Below are positions 28,942-59,983 of a DNA stretch of 64,000 bases, one piece after another. The position numbers and the translations under genes are program-made. The notes beneath the pieces were generated by a model that was given only the letters and a program-made list of their open reading frames with translations, made no database searches and was not told where the DNA came from. The stretch lies in the NCBI GenBank assembly GCA_902796225.1, contig CADBOO010000132.1:21188-85187 (forward strand), given 5' to 3'. The DNA comes from an uncultured Ruminococcus sp. Lineage in GTDB: Bacteria > Bacillota > Clostridia > Oscillospirales > Acutalibacteraceae. Position 1 is the stretch's first letter, and each line of letters begins with the position of its first letter.

Positions 28942-29193
28942 TCATCTCTTTATCCTTTCCACATGGATATCGAACCGCTTGAGTTGGCGTGAGAACGGGT
29001 CTAAGCCTTCCATAGAAGTGCCTTTGTAATAGTCGCTGGGATCGATCTGTTCAAGAGCGTTCGTCAGGTTTTGATCGTTGCTTCTTCTTTCTCTCAACTC
29101 TTCGAGCCACAGCCTTAGCTGTTTATGTTCTTGCCCACAGGCTGAACAATTCTCTTTTTCTCTGCAATGCTCGATAGCTTCATCGAGTGTCAT
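28942..29193 (-). CDS. Fusion protein: small phage early domain plus a copy of the N-terminal segment of the GTA-like major capsid protein
   Basis: AGGAGG RBS; residues encoded by 28960-29070 match capsid residues encoded by 55543-55653 at 26/37, ungapped. Confidence 0.85.
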   Translation of the reverse strand: MTLDEAIEHCREKENCSACGQEHKQLRLWLEELRERRSNDQNLTNALEQIDPSDYYKGTSMEGLDPFSRQLKRFDIHVERIKR

Positions 29194-31170: not shown

Positions 31171-31743
31171 TCACTTGTGATATATTATTGTTGCACGACA
31201 GGATATTCTCTGTATTCCCGATTGGACGTCACATTGAGTTATGAAGAATCCATTCTTCATAATATGCTCTGCTATCTGTCTGCCTAAGTTTTCTAAGGCT
31301 CTGTCTATCACACAATCTTCATTATGCAAGCCTTCCAATTCAGCTCTGTCTAAAAATATATTTTCCATTAGGTTCTCTTCGCTTGTATTGCTACCCTTGT
31401 ATATAGCAAATTGTCCATCAAAAATTGCCGCTTTGAATTGTATCCGCTGAATTTGTTCGTCAGAGAACTCATACCCTCTTCCGAAAGAGTAATTGATGTG
31501 TTTTTGTATTTCTTCAATACTTCCATAGCGCATTATTGTAACAGCTTGTCTGGTGTCGCGATTACAACAATCATTCCATAGCATATATAGCTTATCGCCG
31601 GTAATACAGTTTTCAAGCATTCTACCTAAAGCCATCTTGCCATTTTTGAAAGCCAAACTCTCCATTATTACATTAAGCGCTCCAGGATTACCTTTGCAAA
31701 GCTGGTAAACCTCATCCATATCCTGATAATTAAATTCTTTCAT
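31171..31743 (-). CDS. Hypothetical phage protein
   Basis: GNPGAL...LYMLWNDCC domain; RBS present. Confidence 0.7.
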   Translation of the reverse strand: MKEFNYQDMDEVYQLCKGNPGALNVIMESLAFKNGKMALGRMLENCITGDKLYMLWNDCCNRDTRQAVTIMRYGSIEEIQKHINYSFGRGYEFSDEQIQRIQFKAAIFDGQFAIYKGSNTSEENLMENIFLDRAELEGLHNEDCVIDRALENLGRQIAEHIMKNGFFITQCDVQSGIQRISCRATIIYHK

Positions 31744-31945
31744 TTTCTCTACCTCTTTCTCTAAGAGTTCGAGCTATGGACAACATATCGCGGTAGATGT
31801 GCTGCAACTCAGTAATCTCCGCATTGAGCCGCTGCCGCTGATCGGCAGTTAACCGCTTCCGTTTCTGATCTTTCTTGCGTTCTATCGCGTCGTGGATCTT
31901 CGCGGCGTTGGTTTCGTATTGTTCAGCCCAGTTTATGTAATCCAT
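31730..31945 (-). CDS. Hypothetical coiled-coil phage protein
   Basis: GAGGT RBS; tight packing. Confidence 0.65.
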   Translation of the reverse strand: MDYINWAEQYETNAAKIHDAIERKKDQKRKRLTADQRQRLNAEITELQHIYRDMLSIARTLRERGRENERI

Positions 31946-44586: not shown

Positions 44587-44808
44587 ATGACGGAAAACGG
44601 TATGCTCTTACGAAACACGGAAGAACTGACCGAAGAAGAGTGGAATAACCTTGACGATCTGCTCCGGTTCGGGAATGATCTGCTCGATGATTCAGAAAAG
44701 TCTGTAATGCTACAGACCTTGAAAAAGATAATTGCCGCTACGAATTATGAAGAAATTACGCTGCACGTTCTGCAAGCGTTCATTCAGCTACACCAGGAAA
44801 GGAGGTGA
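44587..44808 (+). CDS. Hypothetical protein
   Basis: AGGAG RBS before ATG 44587. Confidence 0.5.
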   Translation: MTENGMLLRNTEELTEEEWNNLDDLLRFGNDLLDDSEKSVMLQTLKKIIAATNYEEITLHVLQAFIQLHQERR

Positions 44809-44812
44809 AACT

Positions 44813-45964
44813 ATGCCCGCCTACAAGGATGAGGAAAGGGGTACATGGTATGTCAAATGCTACTATACCGACTATTACGGACGAAAGCAGCAGAAGAAAA
44901 AGCGCGGCTTCAAAACAAAGCGTGAAGCGAAGGCATGGGAAGACAATTTTCTCGCAAACGAGTCACGATTGCCGGAAACAATCTTCAAGGATGTGATCTC
45001 TCAATACCTGGATGATACAAAAGATAAAATCGCTCCATCGACTTTGACATACAAAAAACAAGTGATTGAAGTATATATCATGCCGGTGTTTGGTGAAATT
45101 GAGATTTGTAAAATAACGCCGGAAATGGTTCTGTCATGGCAAAAGGATCTAATGAAAACGCCATGCAGAAAAAGAAAGGCACAGAAACTAAGTCCTACGA
45201 CGGTAAACCATATCACCGCCCAGCTTTCGGCAATCTTCAACTACGCTGTAAAATACTATAATGTCTCGAAAAACCCTGTATCCATTATCGACAGATTGAA
45301 AGGCGAATCTAAGACAATGGATTTCTGGGAAGTCAATCAATTCAAGAGAGCCCTTACATGGATCTCAAATCCGGAAATGCACCTGATTTTTCAAATGCTG
45401 TTCTTCGGCGGCTTCCGGATCAGCGAGCTTCTGGCTCTCACGCCAGGTGATCTACAAAAAAATGAAAGGGCTGTTTTCATCAATAAAACATATAAGCTTG
45501 ATGATGGTAAATGGATCAAGGGTCCCCCTAAATCAAAGAATAGTACAAGATTGGTTGCACTTCCAGACTTTCTATGGGATGAATTAGAATCTTTTGTAAG
45601 ACGGCAATACCATCTTAATCAGAATATGGACATTTTTACTGTTTCGAGATCAACGATCAGAGCACGGCTCGAATATATTGCTGAACAAACAAGTCTACCG
45701 CGTATCAGAATACATGATCTACGGCATAGTCATGTATCGTATCTAATCAATTTGGGGTTTACAATATACGAAATTGCTGATAGAATAGGTGACACACCAA
45801 CTGTTGTCGAGCGCATTTATTCACACATGTATCAAAGTCGGAGGCTTGAAATTGCCGATCGGATTCAAAGAGAAAACTCAGAAAATAATGATATTAGTAC
45901 CAAATTAGTACCACAGCGACTTTTGAGATCTAAAGACTACCAGTATTTACCTAGAAAGTTCTGA
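44813..45964 (+). CDS. Tyrosine integrase
   Basis: AAGGAGG RBS; arm-binding N-terminus KKRGFKTKREA, GFRISELLAL, PKS, HDLRH, IYSH. Confidence 0.95.
   Translation: MPAYKDEERGTWYVKCYYTDYYGRKQQKKKRGFKTKREAKAWEDNFLANESRLPETIFKDVISQYLDDTKDKIAPSTLTYKKQVIEVYIMPVFGEIEICKITPEMVLSWQKDLMKTPCRKRKAQKLSPTTVNHITAQLSAIFNYAVKYYNVSKNPVSIIDRLKGESKTMDFWEVNQFKRALTWISNPEMHLIFQMLFFGGFRISELLALTPGDLQKNERAVFINKTYKLDDGKWIKGPPKSKNSTRLVALPDFLWDELESFVRRQYHLNQNMDIFTVSRSTIRARLEYIAEQTSLPRIRIHDLRHSHVSYLINLGFTIYEIADRIGDTPTVVERIYSHMYQSRRLEIADRIQRENSENNDISTKLVPQRLLRSKDYQYLPRKF
45893..45913 (+). repeat. ATTAGTACCA direct repeat, candidate integrase arm-type sites
   Basis: Two 10-bp copies at 11-bp spacing at the integrase 3' end. 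Confidence 0.6.
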
Positions 45965-48780: not shown

Positions 48781-48820
48781 CAGCATGAGAGCCTCCCTTT
48801 CGGGAGGCTCTTGCTGTTTT
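48781..48820. terminator. Terminator between ybjQ and the GTA-like operon
   Basis: AGAGCCTCCC-TTTC-GGGAGGCTCT extended by CAGCA/TGCTG and TTTT. Confidence 0.8.
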
Positions 48821-49285
48821 TCAGCGAAATACGATTGCCAGATACTGGCCGCCGTTTTCGTTCAGATTGAATCGCATTCCGTCCGACGCCGAACTCTGCT
48901 GACGGACGACAAAGCCGGTCGAGCTGACGCTCACTCCGCCGCTGCCGCCGCTGCCGTATACCGCCGTACCGGAATTGACGACCGCTGTCCCGCTGTCGAT
49001 CGCAGTGGGAGCAGCGTTCTTTTTATACACCATCACCATTTTCGGAGCAAAATCCGTCGTCAGCGCCCGGTTATCGACGCCGCTGCCGGAGTAGATCATC
49101 GTCGTATAGGGCGACAACGCCTTCTCCTTCTCCGCCGCCGTCAGATGCTTGGTCGTATCCGCGATATGTCCGCCGACGGTCGAGTCGATGATGTGGTTGT
49201 CCGATACAAAATCCGCGCGTTTCGGACGGTCGGACGCCGCCCAATCGCACAATCCCAGATGGGTCGTAAAACTGCTGGATGCCAT
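48821..49285 (-). CDS. Short tail fibre/tip protein
   Basis: TTHLGLCDW...DNHIID anchor, YSGSG...FAPKMVMV...LNENGGQY C-terminal domain. Confidence 0.7.
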   Translation of the reverse strand: MASSSFTTHLGLCDWAASDRPKRADFVSDNHIIDSTVGGHIADTTKHLTAAEKEKALSPYTTMIYSGSGVDNRALTTDFAPKMVMVYKKNAAPTAIDSGTAVVNSGTAVYGSGGSGGVSVSSTGFVVRQQSSASDGMRFNLNENGGQYLAIVFR

Positions 49286-49299
49286 TTTTCTTCCTTCCT

Positions 49300-49857
49300 T
49301 TATTCAAGAGAATCGATCTCGTCCCAGTCGAGGTCTTCACTGTCAAGCGCAGCAAAGGTCTTGTTCAGCGCGTCCAACTCGCTCCACATCAGCGTATTGA
49401 AAACCAGCTGGAATTCCAGATGCGCCGGAACGATTTTTGCGACTTCGCTTTTGATAAACGCTTGCTCTGCTTTTGTGTAATCTGTCTGCGCCACGATGTT
49501 CAGACGGTTGAGGGTCGGAAACTCCGAGATCACATATTCCAGCCCGAAGCTGTCGAGCGCCATGCGGATCCCGGCGGGGGTAAAATCCCCTTCGCCGAGA
49601 TTCATGCGGCTGAGCAGCCGTTCGCGGCGCTCTGCTGCAGTCAATGACGATTGCTCGGGGCCGAAGAGTTCTTCGTATTCTTTGAGACCTCTGTCCTGCG
49701 CCGTTGCGATGAAGCCCTCCGGGAGCATCTCGTCGATCTGCTGATACAGGCGTTCGAATTCATCTGCGTAAGCCCTCAGCTCCCGCCCGAGATTTCGCGC
49801 ATCCGATCGGTAGATCATCAGCGGGAGCAGCGCTTTTTTCATACTTTGCAGAACCAT
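49300..49857 (-). CDS. YmfQ/DUF2313 baseplate protein
   Basis: FIATA...GL..YE, ERRERL, IVPAHLE. Confidence 0.8.
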   Translation of the reverse strand: MVLQSMKKALLPLMIYRSDARNLGRELRAYADEFERLYQQIDEMLPEGFIATAQDRGLKEYEELFGPEQSSLTAAERRERLLSRMNLGEGDFTPAGIRMALDSFGLEYVISEFPTLNRLNIVAQTDYTKAEQAFIKSEVAKIVPAHLEFQLVFNTLMWSELDALNKTFAALDSEDLDWDEIDSLE

Positions 49858-49860
49858 TCT

Positions 49861-50922
49861 CTACACCTCTCTGACCACGATATTGTCGGGATATGCGATC
49901 TGTGCGTCAGAGATCGGGCAATCGGAGCCGTAGCTCTCCAGAAAGCGATAATCGCGCACGCCCTTGATGTGATAGATGACCTCGCCGACCTCGCTGAGCA
50001 GCAGATCTCTGCCGATACCGAGATCATCAATAAAGCGGGTCACCGCCTGTCGGACCTCATCAGCGACCGTGTCAAAATCGTAGCCGGGATCGACTTTCAG
50101 CCGGATATAGAGCGATATTCCGATCGGCTCCGGCTCAGCCGCCCTGACGTCAACATTCAGCTCTCTCGCCTGTGTCAGCAATGCCTGCACCTGTGCCATT
50201 TGGGTGTTGGACAGCGACATCCCGCCGTCGCCGATGACATAGACGTCGACCGTCCCTGCTCCTCTTGCACAACCGACGACCGACGCGGATGCAACGCCGC
50301 TGACTGACATTGCAAGGCGCTTGTAGTAAGCGGCATTGGCTCCGTTTGAAATATATCTGTAGCTGTCCTGTACGCGGGCGCGCAGATCGTCGTCGCTTTC
50401 CGTATCCGCGCCGCCGCTGTACGGCGCGCCGTTCGTGACGCTGCCGATCCCCGTTATCGGTGTGACGATGATCGTGACGGTACCGCCGTTGACATTGTAG
50501 TCTGCGCCTGCCTGCGCGGCGGTAACATACGCCAGCGCACGTGTATCCTCCGCTCCCAGAACAACGTCGGAATCCGTCACGAACCGATGCATATTGGTAT
50601 ACGCACACACCACTGTACCGGCTGGGATCAGGATCGATCCATGCGTTTCCTCGGAAGGGTAAAAGTATACCGAACCGTGCGCCTTTGCCGCGGGTCTGCG
50701 CGTTATACCGCGTTCTGCGGCGTGCATATCCAAGTATTCGCCGACGGCTGTCGACGGGAACATCTGCCGCAGTACGTATTCCGCATAGGCGCGTTCCTTG
50801 AAGATCTCGGCGGCAAGCACCCTGAGCCGGATCATCACATCCGATCCTTCCTGCGGTTCAAAGCCCGCATAGCCTATGTAACTTTGTTTCATTCTGTCAA
50901 GAATGGTTTCATATGATTCCAG
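49861..50922 (-). CDS. Baseplate J/gp47 protein
   Basis: TAVGEYLDMHA, GGADTESDDDLRARV, RGAGTVDV; likely CTG start at 50922 after GGAGGTG. Confidence 0.9.
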   Translation of the reverse strand: MESYETILDRMKQSYIGYAGFEPQEGSDVMIRLRVLAAEIFKERAYAEYVLRQMFPSTAVGEYLDMHAAERGITRRPAAKAHGSVYFYPSEETHGSILIPAGTVVCAYTNMHRFVTDSDVVLGAEDTRALAYVTAAQAGADYNVNGGTVTIIVTPITGIGSVTNGAPYSGGADTESDDDLRARVQDSYRYISNGANAAYYKRLAMSVSGVASASVVGCARGAGTVDVYVIGDGGMSLSNTQMAQVQALLTQARELNVDVRAAEPEPIGISLYIRLKVDPGYDFDTVADEVRQAVTRFIDDLGIGRDLLLSEVGEVIYHIKGVRDYRFLESYGSDCPISDAQIAYPDNIVVREV

Positions 50923-51259
50923 AAATATCCACCTCCGTCACGGCAGATCTGCCGCGAAAAGTCACTTTTATTCCGGCGACCGCGTTTACGGCGTCGTAGG
51001 AAATAACCTGAGCGTCTACCCCGCCGATATCCGCAACGCCCTCTTTGACGAGCATATCCAGCCGATCGGCGGCATTGTCCGCATCGGGAGAAAACGCGTT
51101 GTAATCCACCCCTAAGCTGCGGTCATACTGAAAGTCGCCGCGCTTGACCAGCGCGACCGTCCGCACCAGCTGTACCGCCTCGTCGAATCCGCCGATCATC
51201 TCAAAATCCCCGTTGAGCCGCAAAGCGATATCACCGTTATTGATCCTGACGTCCATCAC
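50909..51259 (-). CDS. Baseplate wedge protein (gp46/DUF2634-like)
   Basis: RGDFQYDRSLG motif; slot between spike and baseplate J. Confidence 0.7.
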   Translation of the reverse strand: MMDVRINNGDIALRLNGDFEMIGGFDEAVQLVRTVALVKRGDFQYDRSLGVDYNAFSPDADNAADRLDMLVKEGVADIGGVDAQVISYDAVNAVAGIKVTFRGRSAVTEVDISGII

Positions 51260-51594
51260 TGTACCGCCCTTCCGTTGATCAGCACGCTGCCGTCGTTTTT
51301 CAACACTATGGAAGCGCCTCCCGCCGAGTACAGCATCAGCTCGCCGGGCTGCAGCTCGTCACATGCTTCGCCGAGTACCCCGAGGCAGATATTTCCCGCC
51401 TCGGTCGGCAGCACCACCGATCTGCTTCCGACAGCCGGCTTGTATGCGATACCGTACGGCACCGCGACCGGCAGCGACATATGCTCGTTCGTCGCGCTGA
51501 CCGCCACCTTATCGCCTCCTGCCGCACGCACTACGCCGACCGAGGCGCTGTCCTTCGAAAACGAGTTCTCCGTTACATATCTCGATATCCACAT
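51256..51594 (-). CDS. Baseplate spike protein (Mu gp45-like)
   Basis: PYGIAYKP, LQPGELMLYSAGGASIVLKNDG. Confidence 0.8.
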   Translation of the reverse strand: MWISRYVTENSFSKDSASVGVVRAAGGDKVAVSATNEHMSLPVAVPYGIAYKPAVGSRSVVLPTEAGNICLGVLGEACDELQPGELMLYSAGGASIVLKNDGSVLINGRAVQ

Positions 51595-52529
51595 CCGTTA
51601 TTCCTCCTTTTGAGTATCAGGGTCGACGTCCCGCCGCTGCTGTCCAGCCGATAGCTGACGCCGCTGACATAAAGCCCGCCTATCTTTGCGAGCCGGCGGT
51701 TTTTGACAACGGCGTCGCTGCCCATGACCTGCGCCAAAAATCCCGGGCATTTCAGCCGGATGCTGAAAGAAGCGTCGGCGCCGTTTTTGATCATCGTATC
51801 CACGCAGGTCATCGGCGTGGATGAAAGCACGGCGTTCACATATCGTTCCCTGCAAATGCCGCGGCGGACAGCGTCGTCGTTCTCAATCCTGTAGACATAC
51901 CCGTCCTCGTCATTGATCTTGACGTTCACGCGCGAGAGTTCTTCGCACCGCTTGATTGTTTCGCTCAGGTGCGTATAAACGATCCCGTCGCCGGTATCGG
52001 AAAAGACCGCCTCCCCCGAGGATCTGATCCCCTTCATCCACAGCACGCCGTCGGCGGTCACGCGCGGGGTCGAAGAATAACACGCCGTGCAGAAATTCTT
52101 CAGCACAGCCCACTGTGACATGCCTTTGTTGACCTGCTGTTCGCCGTAATAGACCGCGTCGTCATTCTCGCCCCTGACGATCCCGTAACGCTGCACATGG
52201 CGCTCGAAGATCAGCGCCGCCGAGGGATGATCATAACACTCCGGCATCGCCTCGTTATCGAGCAGACGCGCTGCGAGCGAACGGGCGGAGATCTTCAAAA
52301 AGCGTCCCTGTTCACCGATGATATGCTCCTGTTCATCCGCCACGCCGACAAAGATCACCCGATCGCCGTCAAATACCCTGACGTCGACCGTCTCGCCGAC
52401 GTCCTCATATGCAAAAACCGCACAGCAATCGTCTGCGGGGACGTCCTCGTCCATGCGGATGCTGAGCTTCAGCGGGCGGGTGAGGAGATGCGTTTTCCCC
52501 TGTGTATCCGTCAACTCAAAGCTCAGCAT
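51573..52529 (-). CDS. Baseplate hub protein (Mu gpP/XkdQ-like)
   Basis: IFVGVADE, ARSLAARLLDNE motifs; synteny. Confidence 0.75.
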   Translation of the reverse strand: MLSFELTDTQGKTHLLTRPLKLSIRMDEDVPADDCCAVFAYEDVGETVDVRVFDGDRVIFVGVADEQEHIIGEQGRFLKISARSLAARLLDNEAMPECYDHPSAALIFERHVQRYGIVRGENDDAVYYGEQQVNKGMSQWAVLKNFCTACYSSTPRVTADGVLWMKGIRSSGEAVFSDTGDGIVYTHLSETIKRCEELSRVNVKINDEDGYVYRIENDDAVRRGICRERYVNAVLSSTPMTCVDTMIKNGADASFSIRLKCPGFLAQVMGSDAVVKNRRLAKIGGLYVSGVSYRLDSSGGTSTLILKRRNNGCGYRDM

Positions 52530-53044
52530 AAACGCACCCTCTCCCCTTCCTCAAGGCAGTCGATATACCTGATCTGCGGATTCAGCCGCACCAGTGTTTC
52601 AATCGGAACGCCTGTGATATAGCTGATATCCCACAGTGATTCGCCGACAACGATGGCGTCATAGTATTCGCGCGGGATGTTATCCTTTGCCGCCGGCTGT
52701 GCTTCGATGAAAACAAAGCGATATCCGAGCACATCTTCTTTCGGCTGGGCGGTCATTTTCAGCTCTTTGAGATACGCATGCATCGCGGGCATCTTCGGCA
52801 GTGACAGCAGTCCTTCCTTTTCGTCGTCAAGCAGTTTCTGCAAACGCTCAAACTGCGCGATACAATCCGTACCGTACAGCTCGCCCTCGCCGGTGATCCG
52901 GCGCAGCTTGCTGCCGAGATGCGCGCTCTGCGGCTCACAGCAGGGAGAGGTCAGCTCGCGGATATTGCCCGCGCCCTCGATCTTCAGCGTTGCGGGATTA
53001 TGATGAAAGGTGTACCCGCAAAATCGCATGGGGGCATTTTTCAT
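52523..53044 (-). CDS. LysM-domain tube initiator protein
   Basis: HNPATL, GEGELYG, C-terminal LysM GESLWDIS...LNPQI. Confidence 0.8.
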   Translation of the reverse strand: MKNAPMRFCGYTFHHNPATLKIEGAGNIRELTSPCCEPQSAHLGSKLRRITGEGELYGTDCIAQFERLQKLLDDEKEGLLSLPKMPAMHAYLKELKMTAQPKEDVLGYRFVFIEAQPAAKDNIPREYYDAIVVGESLWDISYITGVPIETLVRLNPQIRYIDCLEEGERVRLC

Positions 53045-53169
53045 ATATGCTTTGCCTCCTCTTCTTCGCTGAACGCCTTGTTATAGCGGCGTGCGTCGCG
53101 TTCCATAAACGCGAACGCCTCCTCGTCATAGAATTCGCGTTCTTCGCTTTCATAGATCTCATCCTGCAT
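53041..53169 (-). CDS. 42-aa acidic mini-protein in the tape-measure position (not in ORF track)
   Basis: MQDEIYESEEREFYDEEAFAFMERDARRYNKAFSEEEEAKHI*; overlaps the upstream stop and has an ATGA overlap with the next start. Confidence 0.75.
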   Translation of the reverse strand: MQDEIYESEEREFYDEEAFAFMERDARRYNKAFSEEEEAKHI

Positions 53170-53542
53170 TTTCGCGCACCTGCCTTCTCATGCTTTTCGC
53201 CGTGATCGTAAAGACGTCGACCACGTTTTTTCCTTCCTTGATGCTGCGTTCCTGTCCGGTGACCGTGCAGCCCTCATAGCTGTACACGATCTCTCCGTCG
53301 ACCGCGCTCAGCGTGAATCCGTTCTCCCCGATGATCTCATAGCGGAACAGCGACAATACGCTCAATCTGATCTCTGCGCTGATCCTGCCGTTGACGATCT
53401 CAAACGCCTCGCCGCTGAGATACTCGCGGATCGGATAGCTCTCGCAAGCGGTTTTCGCGACAAAATCCGTCACGCCGAACAGCTGTTCTTCGCCGATATA
53501 CAGCTCGATATCCCGACTGCGGGTGATGCGTAATTCATTCAT
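53159..53542 (-). CDS. Tail tube-like protein
   Basis: 127 aa beta-strand pattern (DIELYI...YSYEGC...FTITA); synteny. Confidence 0.6.
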   Translation of the reverse strand: MNELRITRSRDIELYIGEEQLFGVTDFVAKTACESYPIREYLSGEAFEIVNGRISAEIRLSVLSLFRYEIIGENGFTLSAVDGEIVYSYEGCTVTGQERSIKEGKNVVDVFTITAKSMRRQVRENAG

Positions 53543-53985
53543 CGCACAGCCTCCCCGGTCAGGATGCGGCGCATCGTCACGCGCAGATCGCGATAGATCG
53601 TGCGGGCGGTGTTATCATAGGCAACCCCGCCCAGCGACATCTCGGCGATCTCCCGATCAACGTCGCAGACGCCGACCGCGTCAAACAGCTGGGCGCTCAT
53701 CCTGAGCAGCGCTGACGCCGAAGTGTTGCGCGGCGCATAGACCCTGAGCGTCAGGTCGATCTCATACAAAGCGCCTTTCAGTCCCGTGCCGACGGTATCT
53801 CCGATGAATACCTGCGATCGCTTGACGGACGTCTGATCAACGGCGACCGTGTACTTGTCAATGGGATTCGGCACATCTCTCGGAGGATACGCCGTCATGA
53901 ACACCATATCCGATACCGCGGTACGCTGACGCACGCGCTTGATCAGCTCGTCTATATTATTATCAATCAATGACGTCATAGTCAT
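53539..53985 (-). CDS. Probable tail terminator/neck protein
   Basis: Synteny; LTLRVYAP motif. Confidence 0.55.
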   Translation of the reverse strand: MTMTSLIDNNIDELIKRVRQRTAVSDMVFMTAYPPRDVPNPIDKYTVAVDQTSVKRSQVFIGDTVGTGLKGALYEIDLTLRVYAPRNTSASALLRMSAQLFDAVGVCDVDREIAEMSLGGVAYDNTARTIYRDLRVTMRRILTGEAVR

Positions 53986-54325
53986 CCTCCTTCAATTCTT
54001 TTTTCGGCGAAAGTATCGCCCAGACATAGACCCCGTCGTCGCCGACGACGAATTCTTCGGATCTGACAACGGTATACGCGCTGCCTTTGCAAGTGATCAC
54101 TGTGTTGTCGCCGAAGGAAAATCGGCGGGAGAGATCGCCGATATACAGCTGATAGGAATTGTCATAGTATCCGACAGGGATCTTCTTGTCGTAGAGATAC
54201 AGGCGATGCTGCCGCCGAAGCGGCTGGACAAAGGCCTTGGTGACCTCTGTCCTGCCGTTTGTGCGGATCGCGACCGTATTGCCGTATCGTCTGAGTATTC
54301 TGCGAAAGCTTTGTGATGCGGTCAT
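53963..54325 (-). CDS. Probable head closure protein
   Basis: LRRYGNTV, AFVQPL, LYIG, YVWAIL. Confidence 0.6.
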   Translation of the reverse strand: MTASQSFRRILRRYGNTVAIRTNGRTEVTKAFVQPLRRQHRLYLYDKKIPVGYYDNSYQLYIGDLSRRFSFGDNTVITCKGSAYTVVRSEEFVVGDDGVYVWAILSPKKELKEDDYDVID

Positions 54326-54684
54326 ATTCTCACCGCCCTGAATGAAAAATCGTCGTCGATCGCAACGATACCGGCGATAGACGCCTTCTCGTCTTCCCAG
54401 AGTTTTTCGGCGCTCGTACCGCCGTCGTCATCCATGATCAGCTGAACGTCGCCCGCCTTGAAACTGCTGACGCCCGTATCTCTGCCGAGCCTGCTGATGC
54501 GAAGGTAAGCATACACCGCACAGGCATGAACGACTCGGCGGTGTTCCGGACCGGTCAGTTCACGGCTGATCCTCTCCTCAAAATACTCTTTGCATTCGAT
54601 GATGATCGGCAGATAGCGGGAGATCTCTTTTCTCTCATAACCCGACACCAGAGTGAAGCGTTCAATGATCTCGTTCAAGCTCAT
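54322..54684 (-). CDS. Probable head-tail connector
   Basis: Helical; SSFKAGDV motif; follows the capsid gene. Confidence 0.65.
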   Translation of the reverse strand: MSLNEIIERFTLVSGYERKEISRYLPIIIECKEYFEERISRELTGPEHRRVVHACAVYAYLRISRLGRDTGVSSFKAGDVQLIMDDDGGTSAEKLWEDEKASIAGIVAIDDDFSFRAVRI

Positions 54685-54699
54685 AGTGCCACGCCTCCT

Positions 54700-55707
54700 T
54701 TAGTAGCTCAGCTTTTTGGAAGCGCCGGTAAAGATCTTTGCAAAGCCCGCGATCGAGCTGATCGTCGCGCGCTCAAGCTGACGGTCGATGAGCTTGTCGT
54801 AATCGGTCACGACGTCGCCCGCAACGACCATCTCCAGCGCGCAGTTCTTATCCAGACCGATGACATTGGCGCCGCTGACAGCGGTGGTATGGATGAGATT
54901 TGCGCCGAGCGGCGTGATCATCTTGCCGCTTGCGTGGAAGTTCAGACCCGCGACAGCGTCCTTCATCTCGGTGATGGAGAGCAGCTTGCTCATCGCCGCT
55001 GTCGGCGCAAGGATGGTGTTCAGCTCATAGGGAGCCAGCGCGCCCCACAGAGAGATCAGATCGGCGTAGCTGAGGCTGCCGGATGTCGCCGCGTTAACGG
55101 TCGAGCAGGCGTTGCTGTTACCGTCGCCGTTGATGATCACGTCGACCGCGTCTTTGAGCTGAGCGCGGGCGATGTACGCGCCGATCTGCTTGAGGGTAAC
55201 GGTGAAGAGATCGATACGCTGGAAGCGCAGCGCCTCGTACGATGACACCAGCATTCTGCCGCGCTTATGCAGCTTGACCAGATTATCGTTGGTTTTGATT
55301 TCAGTGGTCGGGATGAATGCGCCCTCGGCGACCTTCATCAGGCTCTTGTCATCCTCTCCGGGAGTCGAGGTGATCGAGCGATAATCCATGCCGTCGATCC
55401 TGGTGACGGTTGCGACGACGTCATTCAGGACGTCAGCCTCTTCCATGCCTGTGTGGACGGCGCGGCTGACGTATTCGGGGAACAGCGCCGCCGAATTGGA
55501 GGTCGCGAAGAACTTCTCAACAGTATCGCTGGCTCTGCCGCTGACTTTGATGTCAAAACGCTTGAGCTGACGGGAAAACGCGTCGAGTCCCTCGAGCGCG
55601 GTACCCTTGTACTCCTCGCTGGGATCCAGCGCCTCCAGCACCTCGGTCAGCGACTTGCCGCTCTGGTACATTCCCTTTTCCAGATTGATGGTTTCAAAAT
55701 TTGCCAT
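54700..55707 (-). CDS. Major capsid protein (HK97 fold)
   Basis: LFPEYV, VAEGAFIP, KLHKRGR...SYEALR, INGDG. Confidence 0.9.
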   Translation of the reverse strand: MANFETINLEKGMYQSGKSLTEVLEALDPSEEYKGTALEGLDAFSRQLKRFDIKVSGRASDTVEKFFATSNSAALFPEYVSRAVHTGMEEADVLNDVVATVTRIDGMDYRSITSTPGEDDKSLMKVAEGAFIPTTEIKTNDNLVKLHKRGRMLVSSYEALRFQRIDLFTVTLKQIGAYIARAQLKDAVDVIINGDGNSNACSTVNAATSGSLSYADLISLWGALAPYELNTILAPTAAMSKLLSITEMKDAVAGLNFHASGKMITPLGANLIHTTAVSGANVIGLDKNCALEMVVAGDVVTDYDKLIDRQLERATISSIAGFAKIFTGASKKLSY

Positions 55708-55719
55708 AGTATTCCCTCC

Positions 55720-56049
55720 TTAAAGAATGAAGCCGATGGTGGCGTCGTCTACATAAATGACAAGGCGGTCGACGCCCGATTCGGCGGTCTTGACAGCGCC
55801 GGTCGCCGCGACGAGTTTCTGATAACCGACGTTGACGGTACCGCTCTTTGCAGCCTCGGTATAGCCTGCGATCTGTACGGCGGCATAGCCGTCGCGGGTG
55901 CTGACGCAGACGCCGATGAATGCGTCGTTTGCGGACGCTTTTGCGACCTTCGCCGACGCGCTCATTTTGACAAGGTCGCCCTTGCTGAGCGTACCGGTAT
56001 ACTCAAAGGTCAGCACATTTTCATTAAAGCCTGAAAACTTGATATTCAT
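55720..56049 (-). CDS. Capsid decoration/cement protein
   Basis: KGDLVKM...FIGV...AAVQIAG; GGAGGT RBS before ATG 56049. Confidence 0.7.
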   Translation of the reverse strand: MNIKFSGFNENVLTFEYTGTLSKGDLVKMSASAKVAKASANDAFIGVCVSTRDGYAAVQIAGYTEAAKSGTVNVGYQKLVAATGAVKTAESGVDRLVIYVDDATIGFIL

Positions 56050-56060
56050 AGTTACCTCCG

Positions 56061-57014
56061 TTAAATTCTGAATTCGGTATTGCCGAAGGTCTGTTCGGCA
56101 GTCATGCGGCAAAGCTGAGGCGCCGCCGGTTTTGCGGGCTGTTTGCCGAGCGCCTTGATCAGCGCCTGCAGCTCGCCCACATCGAGCTTTTCGATAATGC
56201 TTTTGGATGTATTGAAATCCACCTCAATCTTGAGATCGGCGATCTGACGTCTGAGCTTTTCGCACAGCTCGGCGCGGTACGCGTCGGCATACTCCGCCTT
56301 TTTCTCCAGCGCTTTGACATATTCTCTGAGCGAATCCATATCGCGCTTCGAAAGGAAGATATCCTTCTCGCATTCCAAAAGCGTTTTGATCGTTTTCATA
56401 TCCTTCTCCTTGATTCCTGTTTTGACCACGCCGGCGGCTCGCTGGGCGGGAACCGCGACAAAGCTGAATTCATACGCGTCGGTCGGCTCCGATAATTCAC
56501 CGCAGCACTTCTCGCCGTTATACTCGCTGCCCTTGACATGATTGCACAGCGGCGAACGCATGTCGTTGCGGCAGATCGAACAGACGGTTTTGCCGACACT
56601 GCAGCCGACGGATACCTCTTTGACGATGCCCGCCTCGATCTGATCGATCAGCTCGGCGTTCGCCTGCGTGCGGCGGATATACGCCCTTGCGGTCAGGCGA
56701 AACAATTCGTCGCCCAACGCGGTCGTTTTGCCCTCGACATTCTCGACCTTACACGAGATGATCCGCGCCTTCTGATTCCTGGCGGTCGGATCGTGGTCGA
56801 TGATGCCGGTCTTGCCGACGAACAGTTTTTCGAGCGCGAACAGCGATTCGACCGTAAAGCGTTCGTTGTCCCTGTCGAGATCGTTATCACACAATACGAC
56901 CGTGAACAGATACACCTCGTCCGCGCTCAGCTCACGGCGCGAATAGGTGTTGACCAGCGCCATTTCTTCAGCAAGCGAATCCCCGGCGCTTTTGATGACC
57001 ATTCCGTTTTTCAT
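56061..57014 (-). CDS. Prohead protease/scaffold
   Basis: DRDNERF, DH, KEVSVGC, CSIC...CNH, EFSFVAVPAQ, helical C-terminus. Confidence 0.8.
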   Translation of the reverse strand: MKNGMVIKSAGDSLAEEMALVNTYSRRELSADEVYLFTVVLCDNDLDRDNERFTVESLFALEKLFVGKTGIIDHDPTARNQKARIISCKVENVEGKTTALGDELFRLTARAYIRRTQANAELIDQIEAGIVKEVSVGCSVGKTVCSICRNDMRSPLCNHVKGSEYNGEKCCGELSEPTDAYEFSFVAVPAQRAAGVVKTGIKEKDMKTIKTLLECEKDIFLSKRDMDSLREYVKALEKKAEYADAYRAELCEKLRRQIADLKIEVDFNTSKSIIEKLDVGELQALIKALGKQPAKPAAPQLCRMTAEQTFGNTEFRI

Positions 57015-58156
57015 TCCTTCACCTCCGTGAGCGTCGCTTCGATCTGGGCGGCACGCGCGTTATCCAGCCGCGCCGACGCCAGTTCCGTTTCATCCTGTAA
57101 GCTGATATTGTCCCACTCGATCCCGACCTGCGGGTTGAGTCCCGCACAGCTCAGATAGATCCGCGCGATCCTGAGCAGCACCGGTGATAACAGTGAACGG
57201 TAATAATCCAGCTCCGACGTAAGGATATCCGCCTGCTGAGAGGACATCCTCTCGGTCGTCGACCACGACAGTCCCAGCAAAAACGGCGGTACGGACAGCT
57301 TTGCGACGATCTGCTCGAGGATATGCCTGATCGGAACGTCGCAGTCGAGGATCTGGTTATCCGCGCCGATCGCCCTGACGGAAACGTCGCCGACCGAAAT
57401 AAAGTCGCACACCCTGCCTTTATCGCGCATGGCGCGGCCCCACTCCTGAGCGATCTCCTCCACGCGCTGTTTCGAATTGATCGCAGAAGTCCCTGTCGGC
57501 GGGCGATAGGTCACCGCGAAGCGGACGTTGCCGGCGCGCTCGAAATTCTGTCCTACGCTGTCGAAGATCTTCAGCAGGATCTCGCTGACGAACGGCAGAC
57601 CGCCGAGGATCGAGTTGCCCTTGAGCGAACCGGGATCGGGGTTGAGCAGGCTCACACAGATCAGCTCGGGATGCTCGACCTCTCGTGAGAGACCGATCCC
57701 CTTCGCACAGATGCGCACATCCAGCGGATTGCTGCCGGTCTTGAGCTCGACAGCGTCCGCCGGGGCGTTATACAGCGCCGCGACCTCTGTGCCGTCCGAG
57801 GAAAGCACAATTTCGCCCACCGCCGTTCCGTAGGTGAGCAGCTGATCAAAATAGCAGAAGATGAACTCCCTGATCCCCGTTCCCACACCGCCGACACGGA
57901 CGTTGTCAAAAAAGTGATCCAGCGATCTTTGCGCGGCGTCATCCGCGCATTTCACGTAAAAATCCCCCAGCAGGCGGATCAGCTTGCCGATCGCGGCGTC
58001 GATCACCGGCACCGCTTTTCTCAGTTCACGATACAGCCTGTATTGCGTCGGATCCGCACTTTTGTACAGCGACGGGAGAATACTTCCCCTGTCGGCTGCG
58101 GCACAGGTCTGCACCGCGGGAGTACCGCTCTCTTTTTTAGCGGAAAACAGTTTCAA
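57011..58156 (-). CDS. Portal protein
   Basis: VPVIDAAI, GTAVGEIV, GNSIL, PPFLLG; lies after the terminase; probable TTG start at 58156. Confidence 0.85.
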   Translation of the reverse strand: MKLFSAKKESGTPAVQTCAAADRGSILPSLYKSADPTQYRLYRELRKAVPVIDAAIGKLIRLLGDFYVKCADDAAQRSLDHFFDNVRVGGVGTGIREFIFCYFDQLLTYGTAVGEIVLSSDGTEVAALYNAPADAVELKTGSNPLDVRICAKGIGLSREVEHPELICVSLLNPDPGSLKGNSILGGLPFVSEILLKIFDSVGQNFERAGNVRFAVTYRPPTGTSAINSKQRVEEIAQEWGRAMRDKGRVCDFISVGDVSVRAIGADNQILDCDVPIRHILEQIVAKLSVPPFLLGLSWSTTERMSSQQADILTSELDYYRSLLSPVLLRIARIYLSCAGLNPQVGIEWDNISLQDETELASARLDNARAAQIEATLTEVKE

Positions 58157-58160
58157 ATAC

Positions 58161-59444
58161 TTACCTCCCTTGTGCGGCAGAATCATTCCGCCGCTCTACG
58201 ATTGCACAGCAAAAGCTGCTGTCAGCCTTTGTGATATAGCTGACAAAATACCGTATGTCGTCCATGGCGTGGTCGTCCCTCTTGATGACGGTATCCGAAG
58301 GCTTGTCCTCGTCCCAGCGATAGAGCGAAAACTCGCGGATCGCGTCGCTACAGTTCTCGCAAATGACGACTTCTTTGCGCATCAGCGCCTGATAGGTTTT
58401 GCGGATGCCGTCCAGCACGTTGTTGTCCGCCCTCACTGCCGCAAAACGTCCGTGACGTTCGATAACCTCGATAAAGCTGGCGGCGCTGGGGTCGACGATC
58501 ACCGTCCCGACGTCCAGCGTACCGACAAGGTTTTCGAGCGCCGTATAGTGCTCCTCATCGGTACGCGATTTTCCCTCTCTGCGCGCATCATAGTAGTCCT
58601 CTGCGATCCGATACCAGACCTCGCCGATCCTGCCCCAGAGTCCCAGCGAAGTCGGATTTACCGTGCCGTAATCGCAGGAGACACAGTATTCCTCAAAGCT
58701 GACCTTCGGAACAGGTACGAACATACTGCTGTCATCCATAAACGGATAGACAGCGCCCGAAACACTCACCCATTCGCCCTCGACAAAACGCTTATAGAAC
58801 GCGCCGGAATACAGCTTTTCATAGCGTCCCAGCATTTTTTGCGAGAGCGACGGATTGTCTTTCATCGAGAAGTGGATATACACGGCGTTTTTTTCATTCC
58901 TGCGGCATATCCACTCTCTGTAGAACCAGTGAGAAGGGTATTCGGGGTTACAGTTGAAGAAGAACCGCGATCCCTGCACCGAGCATCGCGCGAGCGCCTG
59001 TTCGACGAATGAACGCGGCATCAGCGCAACCTCGTCAAACAACACGCCCGACAGCGTGATGCCCTGCACCAGCGCGGCGCTGCCCTCATCCTTACCCGAA
59101 AACAGGTAAAAGTAATTCTCGTGCCCGTGAAATCCGATGACGAGCCGATTGCGCGAAAGGTTGTCCTCCACGCTGAAGCCCATCTCTTTCAGGCACGGCA
59201 GAAGCGGCACGATCACGTTGCGCCGTAAGGCGCCGATGGTTTTTCCGCACAGGCCGAGAGAGGCTTTTTGAAAGCTCAGCATCGCCCACATCACAAACGA
59301 CAGCGACAGCGAAAAGGTCTTGCCCGAACGGACAGCCCCGTCGCAGATCACCGCGTCGTGATGCTCGTATCCCGAGCCGTCGGCCCACCAAAAAAGCGCT
59401 TGCAGCTGCTTTTGAGAAAACGGTTTATACTCCATCGTCGTCAC
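58161..59444 (-). CDS. Terminase large subunit (PBSX type)
   Basis: GAVRSGKT, LFDEVA, NCNP, CDYG, DPSA, DHAMDDIRY; all motifs intact. Confidence 0.95.
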   Translation of the reverse strand: MTTMEYKPFSQKQLQALFWWADGSGYEHHDAVICDGAVRSGKTFSLSLSFVMWAMLSFQKASLGLCGKTIGALRRNVIVPLLPCLKEMGFSVEDNLSRNRLVIGFHGHENYFYLFSGKDEGSAALVQGITLSGVLFDEVALMPRSFVEQALARCSVQGSRFFFNCNPEYPSHWFYREWICRRNEKNAVYIHFSMKDNPSLSQKMLGRYEKLYSGAFYKRFVEGEWVSVSGAVYPFMDDSSMFVPVPKVSFEEYCVSCDYGTVNPTSLGLWGRIGEVWYRIAEDYYDARREGKSRTDEEHYTALENLVGTLDVGTVIVDPSAASFIEVIERHGRFAAVRADNNVLDGIRKTYQALMRKEVVICENCSDAIREFSLYRWDEDKPSDTVIKRDDHAMDDIRYFVSYITKADSSFCCAIVERRNDSAAQGR

Positions 59445-59916
59445 CCGCCGGTATAACGGATCGACCCAGCGCCTGTGCCGAAAGCCGCATCGCTTCGATC
59501 AGTCCGCCGGAAGAATTTAATTCTTCTGAAGAATTAAGAAGCTCGTTCAGCTTGTCCGCCGCCTTCACGCGGTCAAAGAACTTGATCTCCATGCTCTTGT
59601 CCTTTGTCCGCTTGATTTCCGCAACGGACGACAGATCCAGCATCTCCAGTTCCTCGTCGGTCGGATCCTCGTGATACAACAGCTTGAGCGCGTCACAGGG
59701 GTTCGAGAGCGCCGTCCGATACAATCCGCACATCGCCGTGTGGCGGTATACTGCGCGCAGCGCCTCGGCATTGCGTCCGATTTCAGCGGCAATATCGGCG
59801 CGGCACACCAGCCGCTGCCATTTCTTTGCCGATTTGATTCCTGCTTCGCGCGCCGCACGCGCAGGATCTCCGCAGATCGCCGTCAGACGGCAGAATTCTT
59901 TTTCTTTTGGTTTCAT
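59425..59916 (-). CDS. Terminase small subunit
   Basis: KEKEFC...AAREAG start, EIKFFDRVKAADKL; GAAAGGAG RBS. Confidence 0.8.
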   Translation of the reverse strand: MKPKEKEFCRLTAICGDPARAAREAGIKSAKKWQRLVCRADIAAEIGRNAEALRAVYRHTAMCGLYRTALSNPCDALKLLYHEDPTDEELEMLDLSSVAEIKRTKDKSMEIKFFDRVKAADKLNELLNSSEELNSSGGLIEAMRLSAQALGRSVIPAGDDDGV

Positions 59917-59963
59917 ACAAAACTCCTTTCACTGATTCCACCCATGCCGCGAAAATAAAAAAA

Positions 59964-59983
59964 GTTGCATAAACCTATGCAAC
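59964..59983. promoter_or_regulatory. Perfect inverted repeat upstream of the GTA-like operon
   Basis: GTTGCATA-AACC-TATGCAAC, followed by a T-run on the minus strand. Confidence 0.55.

Follow-up and report, generated by a model that had tools for sequence, protein, structure and literature searches.

What does a bacterium gain from keeping phage head and baseplate genes intact in its chromosome? The question is raised by an operon at positions 48821-59916 (minus strand) of a 64,000-nt stretch of DNA from an uncultured Ruminococcus sp. (GenBank assembly GCA_902796225.1, contig CADBOO010000132.1), the whole of which we call the window. In the genome that holds it (G000; G-, C- and L-numbers are the genomes, contigs and loci of the analysis), 18 consecutive intact open reading frames (ORFs) run from 59916 to 48821, with intergenic distances of -26 to +16 nt. 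An initial annotation of the DNA had described a tightly coupled, non-mobile phage-gene operon and proposed a gene transfer agent (GTA) or an anti-phage particle. Here, we argue, at a probability of roughly 0.6, that the operon is a host-inherited and selectively maintained kit of head and near-tailless baseplate, which would build GTA-like particles induced by the SOS response and filled with host DNA.

The ORF spacing, together with profile matches for most of the named genes, bears out the tight and uninterrupted coupling; the longest ORF encodes 427 aa. On one side the operon ends at a terminator-like hairpin (48786..48813) between the convergent ybjQ and tip genes, and on the other, next to the small terminase gene terS, stands a divergent GerA-family gene (60128), so that the proposed bounds hold. 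The GC content of third codon positions (GC3) is 0.71 in the operon and 0.72 in the host flanks, i.e., the codon endings are GC-rich like those of the host, as had been noted, and it is 0.51 in the neighbouring prophage. We found no integrase within or beside the operon and no att-like repeat between its flanks, where the longest direct repeat has 9 nt. The further claim that lysis genes and a regulator are missing is true inside the operon only: two cassettes of lysis genes, preceded by the same promoter, and a candidate activator lie elsewhere in the genome.

Synteny and gene order were counted on the best 80 loci, with about 680 GTDB stretches giving a pattern match. Gene order is kept across these 80 loci and none of them holds an integrase, nor do the regions of four relatives that reach beyond the insertion site. 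The capsid gene is present in 21 of the 24 genus genomes (71-80% identity) and in 119 of 200 family genomes, in one as a fragment only and in one, G055, split; apart from G055 there is a single match per genome. Across the order it occurs in 45 of 300 genomes, restricted to four families (three besides the host's), and the carriers of the operon are gut and rumen bacteria. Close relatives retain the gerA/spmAB and lipoprotein flanks, and gerA and spmAB flank most genus loci. In other genera the operon lies at different sites, in some cases as head and neck without baseplate, and the gerA/spmAB neighbourhood is also lost in some genus members.

Only 3 of 1085 gene hits are possibly broken, and the 17 larger genes have pairwise dN/dS values of 0.03-0.38 in up to six hand-picked pairs; for the 42-aa gene dN/dS is saturated or near 0, the gene being too short for scoring. 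A FastTree phylogeny of the head genes (terL, portal, protease and capsid) from 28 genomes, two genomes without an rpoB match being excluded, has in common with the tree of the single marker rpoB 11 of its 13 well-supported splits (random mean 0.2), at a patristic rho of 0.82. Judged by these comparisons, the operon is vertically inherited and under purifying selection. Conservation, synteny, dN/dS (below 0.4) and species-tree congruence were the checks that the initial annotation had suggested, and its picture of a non-mobile, non-decaying operon stands: the distribution is neither patchy nor pseudogenised, and no larger prophage contains the operon in relatives.

The operon promoter is shared with loci dispersed over the genome. 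Upstream of terS lies the palindrome TTGCA-N8-TGCAA (59965..59982, minus strand; found in 52 of 65 terS upstream regions), which is the predicted activator site. A second, GGxATAGGTG-like box (59939..59948, minus strand) follows 16-17 nt on its 3' side, with a spacing of 16 or 17 nt in 47 of the 52 loci, and a T-run accompanies both. G000 has the strict form TTGCAT-N6-ATGCAA at four places, namely before terS, before a BppU-like gene with an r1t holin and a CHAP endolysin (C95), before an amidase and a holin-like gene (C30), and at a contig end before a 39-bp x4.9 repeat array (C15). In 26 relatives we count 148 promoter sites, against 10 for a reversed control. Sixty-five of the 148 were examined, 25 of them unselected (the first per genome) and 40 chosen by us, with labels only partly checked by profiles. 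Phage-type or satellite genes follow 48 of the 65: terS in 3 cases, fibre-like or leucine-rich repeat (LRR) genes in 16, holins or endolysins in 7, replication initiators in 14, orphan helicases in 5 and integrase-bearing elements in 3. The others precede unrelated genes (13) or no clear ORF (4). The share of sites before phage-type genes is 15/25 among the unselected first sites and 5/7 in the one-contig genome G002, in which the sites are spread from 0.15 to 2.42 Mb.

Many initiators of this regulon are N-terminal halves, followed by short, iteron-like repeats and AT-rich tracts, a layout that resembles lambdoid origins; at some promoter sites the repeats are present without an ORF. The truncated initiators and repeats suggest, by analogy with the Bartonella agent BaGTA, run-off replication. 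Coverage peaks of the run-off type have been reported for another family in a mouse-gut preprint (10.64898/2026.07.08.737213, in excerpt). Two tracts in G013 (L438, L440) are near-identical copies of promoter plus AT-rich repeats, each without an ORF and before a host gene, and are candidates for bare origins. At L138 (G012:C79) the promoter precedes a full initiator and a DnaC-like loader, beside an ORF whose start we take to be Cas9-like. We dropped SigK/SigE control of the terS promoter, since aligned upstream regions revealed the palindrome with its second box and the association with spo0A is weak. A role of the palindrome as a general phage promoter was rejected as well: its 77 matches in IMG/VR are mostly chance hits in unrelated contigs, with 13 before the element's own terS/terL and, by reading of the sequence, one before a 766-aa primase-like ORF and one before a fibre-like ORF.

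The candidate activator is a 94-aa helix-turn-helix (HTH) protein with sigma region 4 only, encoded in G000 on C96, unlinked to the operon and directly after a gene for a 75-aa helical hairpin. At a strict match (E at most 4e-8, short frame), 84 of the 200 family genomes have both activator and capsid gene, 2 the activator only, 35 the capsid gene only and 79 neither; all 24 genus genomes have the activator. We infer that the region-4 protein acts on the TTGCA-N8-TGCAA palindrome. Upstream of the activator operon, 30 of 35 loci have a GAAC-N4-GTTC box at no more than one mismatch, against 4.35 expected from shuffles, and a sigma-A-like promoter adjoins it. From its sequence context, this box is the LexA operator of the organism, because a matrix built only from the activator-upstream boxes ranks among its top eight G000 sites those of recA, lexA, rmuC and IMS-family polymerase (twice), besides the activator operon itself, a methyltransferase and one unidentified gene.

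The match of the activator to the Xpf-type model NF005385 is weak and far below its cut-off. A split sigma factor, with the 75-aa protein as region 2, was rejected as the model of that protein is a plain two-helix hairpin; the predicted complex of the two proteins scores 0.01, which is evidence neither way. Autoregulation through the palindrome is not general either: of 24 loci, one (in G002) has exact sites, which lie about 1 kb upstream, and one other has two sites with a single mismatch each. Besides the LexA box, two more elements are seen upstream of the activator operon (L402-L425, L330), namely a GTCC-N8-GGAC-like palindrome that recurs and, downstream of it, GCCCC...ACGAAT. They could represent the site of another regulator or an RNA structure.

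The GTA-like reading is the most economical: packaging motor, docking baseplate with variable fibres, lysis and DNA-amplifying genes share one predicted switch. RecA-dependent cleavage of LexA would free the operon of 75-aa and region-4 genes, and the region-4 protein would bind the palindrome and turn on all loci. Truncated phage initiators, origin-like repeats and helicases would then amplify chromosomal DNA by run-off replication, the terminase would pack headfuls, and holin and endolysin would lyse the producer. Variable fibres would finally dock the particle on kin, which would take up the DNA; a ComEC gene, of a widespread kind, is present. Measured against the viriform criteria for GTAs in PMC9662315 (in excerpt), the element is fully endogenised and, as is often the case, spread over several loci: integrase and att are absent, and lysis, fibre and activator genes lie on other contigs, the first two with the promoter. 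Its inheritance is vertical by the 28 genomes and the one marker compared, with one conflict. On these genomic grounds the GTA proposal of the initial annotation is partly upheld, with 'GTA' itself as a candidate designation.

The head half of the operon starts with terS (59425..59916, minus strand, as are all ORFs of the operon; phrog_51 and, weakly, PF03592 at E 3e-5) and a PBSX-family large terminase subunit, terL (58161..59435; TIGR01547, 181 bits, above cut-off). Then come the portal (57011..58186; phrog_30703, E 5e-121), a probable prohead protease/scaffold whose role is assigned from position (56061..57014; phrog_16951, weakly phrog_4523 and NF045541), a head decoration-like protein (55720..56049; phrog_4588) and the major capsid protein (54700..55707; PF25209, phrog_3922, weakly TIGR01554). 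Compared with GenBank phages, the capsid finds five unannotated faecal contigs at 60-71% identity and three distant records; a sequence search of solved structures gave no match. Two neck genes with conserved places and no family match are by position an adaptor (neck 1, 54322..54684) and a stopper (neck 2, 53963..54325), and precede a tail terminator (neck3, 53539..53985) and a tail tube-fold protein (53159..53542; Z 10.4 to the phiCD508 tail chain).

Neck3 and tube are fused into one ORF of about 230-270 aa in many relatives. In an AlphaFold model of the fusion from L065 (pLDDT 90.8), domain 1, the homologue of neck3, folds like tail terminators (lambda gpU and that of RcGTA, Z 12-13) and domain 2 like tail tubes (Z about 10). 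Because terminator and tube are fused one-to-one, a single tube ring is implied, and the predicted tail is a terminator plus one ring on the baseplate. A conserved 42-aa protein with an ERDARRY motif (53041..53169) sits at the position of tail chaperone and tape measure, and the operon has no full-length tape measure. We found no sheath gene in the operon or in 5/5 relatives searched, including the one-contig genome, and the sole sheath gene of G000 belongs to the neighbouring prophage.

The baseplate half comprises a LysM baseplate/tube-initiator protein (52523..53044; weak PF01476, PF07157, phrog_184), the hub (51573..52529; phrog_177), a short spike inferred from position (51256..51594; phrog_25991, a PHROG of unknown function), a gp25-like wedge subunit (50909..51259; phrog_120), baseplate J (49861..50892; PF04865, E 1e-51) and a Mu gp48/YmfQ-like wedge (49300..49857; PF10076). 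The last gene, tip (48821..49285), presumably encodes a short fibre or tip adaptor; gp53-like fibre C-termini are leads from the ESM Atlas that score only 0.80. The Atlas search gave no named family for the tip and the 75-aa protein, and the family profile search no significant match for neck1, neck2, neck3, tube, mini-protein and tip (best for the tip HphA_C, E 0.004). In the pairs L015/L020 and L023/L031 the baseplate genes have clearly higher dS than the head genes and gerA, which suggests that the module was exchanged between species. Three variants (L076, L088, L090) are without baseplate and have, after neck 2, an ORF of roughly 285 aa that ends in the tip domain; we read this form as podovirus-like or tail-borrowing.

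Several points weigh against a GTA-like particle. The operon offers no obvious means of delivering DNA, as a tape measure and recognisable ejection proteins are both missing, and particles, packaged DNA and transfer are candidate properties predicted from genes. The putative link between activator and palindrome is one of co-occurrence, in which kin are not independent and the p value overstates the association; 35 capsid-positive genomes have no strict activator match, and three genus genomes without a capsid match (85-93% complete) still have the activator. No initiator or helicase gene follows the G000 promoter sites, and the replication genes, which vary among species, are as compatible with repeated recruitment or with decoys as with replication of the run-off type. 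The head tree conflicts strongly with rpoB in one case (G122). For some pairs dS is higher in baseplate than in head genes, by as much as about tenfold in L015/L020, which suggests a module exchange as also seen in killer particles. Finally, Table S1 of a human study of virus-like particles (VLPs; PMC12946183, in excerpt) assigns a metagenome-assembled genome (MAG) of R. bromii to prophage induction rather than GTA and gives length peaks of 37.2, 5.95 and 17.7 kb, of which the one at 5.95 kb is unassigned; this MAG may or may not carry the element.

The strongest alternative, which we still consider unlikely, is that anti-phage interference is the main job: the operon would be co-induced with prophages by SOS, phage DNA would be cut by its terminase or caught in its small heads, phage origins would be blocked by truncated initiators and lysins would end infections early, with host packaging as a by-product. 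Phages do hold the capsid gene. Outside their own head modules, three lineages have copies or pieces of it: a group of 57-114 kb, a 34.5-kb temperate phage and the prophage in the window. Among 80 IMG/VR loci, 13 have a lone capsid gene without the operon, mostly in the one 57-114 kb group, and 3 of the 13 lie at a locus edge. In this group the gene was captured from ribosome-binding site (RBS) to stop, often with a piece of the protease gene; it is 93-99% identical in nucleotides to the host gene, and its intact ORF stands amid small non-structural genes. Between phage and host copies dN/dS is 0-0.19 and among host copies 0-0.03, host polymorphism inflating dS. Three of four members searched have their own terminase and one its own head module, where the capsid is labelled by position and has no Pfam match. 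The 34.5-kb phage is unrelated and carries the copy in addition to its own HK97-type capsid gene. A captured copy is present in the phages L202, L213, L220, L229, L234, L235, L238-L243 and L178, several of which share an 11-aa duplication near residue 250; L191 and L194, in which phage and host join at the capsid gene, may be assembly chimeras.

The neighbouring prophage is a complete-looking myovirus at 1-45964 of the window (integrase 44732-45964), 2.9 kb from the operon, and extends past the left edge. There, at L529, a reverse transcriptase (PF00078) stands beside a 2156-aa tail gene, a layout that may be that of a diversity-generating retroelement. One of its ORFs (28942..29193, minus strand) joins a small phage domain (phrog_33451) to an N-terminal capsid piece, 54% identical to capsid residues 16-65. 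The initial annotation had taken this fragment as a sign that the operon matters to phages; the fragment is real, and on its own it is weak evidence for such importance. A second ORF (31730..31945, minus strand) is 42% identical to the 75-aa gene preceding the activator (C96), with transfer possible in either direction. Capture of this gene from host to prophage is unsupported, given that the prophage version belongs to a family of its own (59-100% identity) and is 22-43% identical to host copies; an IMG/VR search confirmed no other phage relatives of it.

Capsid capture and the many half-length initiators lend the anti-phage alternative some support, and it ranks below a GTA. Phages that suppress a rival for DNA and for the timing of lysis could account for the capture just as well. 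A complete baseplate and variable fibres under purifying selection are needless for purely intracellular interference, and the complete-looking prophage resides beside the element. Under the GTA-like reading, the particle would face competition from temperate phages that respond to the same signal, and because of this competition both the phage capsid copies and the use of its promoter by satellites would be explained. Three integrase-bearing loci, L123 (G016:C36), L129 (G008:C101) and L137 (G012:C68), have an excisionase-like HTH gene and primase/helicase genes behind the element's promoter, and L129 and L137 additionally a Cro/CI repressor and a phrog_36 activator. They are candidate satellites of the particle, and phages and phage satellites appear to exploit the element. 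In integrase, excisionase-like HTH and primase/helicase these loci resemble PICI-like satellites, from which they differ in that their replication genes follow the promoter of a domesticated host element, whereas in PICI-like satellites a helper phage is the trigger. An integrase, att sites and a replication module, as in a capsid-forming PICI, are absent in and beside the operon.

Next, and in our judgement also improbable, is a PBSX-like killer particle, i.e., an SOS-induced bacteriocin against related strains with random host DNA inside and no DNA delivery. PBSX has the gene order head-neck-tube-LysM-hub-spike-wedge, the same as in the element, which thus recalls the PBSX late operon, and controls its Xpf through the Xre repressor; the element differs in having a region-4-only activator of 94 aa with a direct LexA box. 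Further likenesses to PBSX of B. subtilis are the chromosomal location, the PBSX-family terminase, holin/endolysin lysis and SOS induction through a sigma-like activator (PMC4243946, PMC12946183, both in excerpt), induction of the element being a prediction; the variable fibres and more diverged baseplate genes also fit a killer. PBSX combines its terminase with a contractile sheath and a tape measure, and the element has neither; its lysis, fibre and activator genes are dispersed. A single tube ring, without sheath and tape measure, could not give rise to a killing tail of either the contractile or the long flexible type. R-type tailocins (pyocin, diffocin) are headless and sheathed, whereas the operon has head and packaging genes and no sheath.

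A particle produced in the mother cell during sporulation would explain the gerA/spmAB neighbourhood of most genus loci, and G000 has Spo0A and, by reading of the sequence, sigma E/F/G/K-like genes. We regard it as very unlikely: other genera and some genus members have lost this neighbourhood, spo0A is only weakly associated with the capsid gene (112/7/69/12 in the same test on 200 family genomes, p 0.048) compared with the region-4 gene, and the element owns a promoter, lysis genes and a LexA-boxed candidate activator. There is hardly any chance that the genes, phage in origin and 2.9 kb from a real prophage, are a decaying or hitch-hiking remnant without host function, given their purifying selection, the 3/1085 flagged hits, tree congruence, host-like GC3, conserved promoter and family-wide range, and a prophage that sits separately between mfd and the lipoprotein gene and is absent from the four relatives whose sequence spans that site.

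Among GTAs, those of the Alphaproteobacteria (RcGTA, CcGTA) are siphovirus-like with a tape measure; by the structure match, the RcGTA terminator has its fold in common with the element. They too are multi-locus, vertically inherited and under purifying selection (PMC9662315, in excerpt), and CcGTA has been linked to DNA damage or repair (PMC9632790, in excerpt). BaGTA likewise couples a capsid/lysis module by regulation to phage-derived replication functions (10.1101/2024.11.20.624540 and PMC9662315, in excerpt). Run-off replication would, on this analogy, be carried out by the element as well; it differs in its Gram-positive host and in its replication genes, which derive from several phage families, occur singly at scattered places, are often truncated and stand downstream in the regulon, not upstream. 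In the profile search the element's capsid did not match the N4-gp56 model, which NCBIfam presumably holds. That family provides the capsid of FpGTA, the 10-ORF agent of Faecalibacterium (Borodovich et al. 2026, PMC12946183, in excerpt). FpGTA is, by the same excerpt, similar in being a non-mobile element of gut Clostridia with a head operon, a separate fibre/lysis operon and a very short tail. Compared by description, the element differs in 18 ORFs, a PF25209 capsid and a baseplate in the main operon. Hence, it is not this published cluster, and from the capsid family as described it looks like a domestication independent of FpGTA. The element is neither FpGTA nor a member of PBSX, a tailocin or a capsid-forming PICI.

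GTA-like packaging is reported to be common in gut Clostridia, and Faecalibacterium is the one genus for which the papers found describe a validated gene set (PMC12946183, in excerpt). The openly accessible papers we found, with subscription journals and bioRxiv supplements out of reach, do not describe this cluster, nor did narrow keyword searches return a conflict between GTA, phage and satellite. Of the genomes sampled from this large gut and rumen family, in which many are labelled Ruminococcus, about 60% have the element. We predict DNA damage as its trigger and propose an activator gene and a promoter motif, so that a single experiment could decide whether the element makes a DNA-transfer particle. 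If the particle is real, it could become a genetic tool for a poorly tractable group. Capsid capture by phages and promoter use by satellites point to a conflict between GTA, phages and satellites. More tentatively, and in our view less likely than not, the element may be a family-wide Gram-positive GTA under direct SOS control, by way of an activator that consists of region 4 only and is repressed by LexA. It would repeatedly have taken up origins and helicases of phages for run-off replication; integrase-bearing satellites would have adopted its promoter so as to travel in its capsids, and phages would keep selected copies of its capsid gene to sabotage it. Such a GTA would itself act as a host, with parasites and a phage counter-defence of its own.

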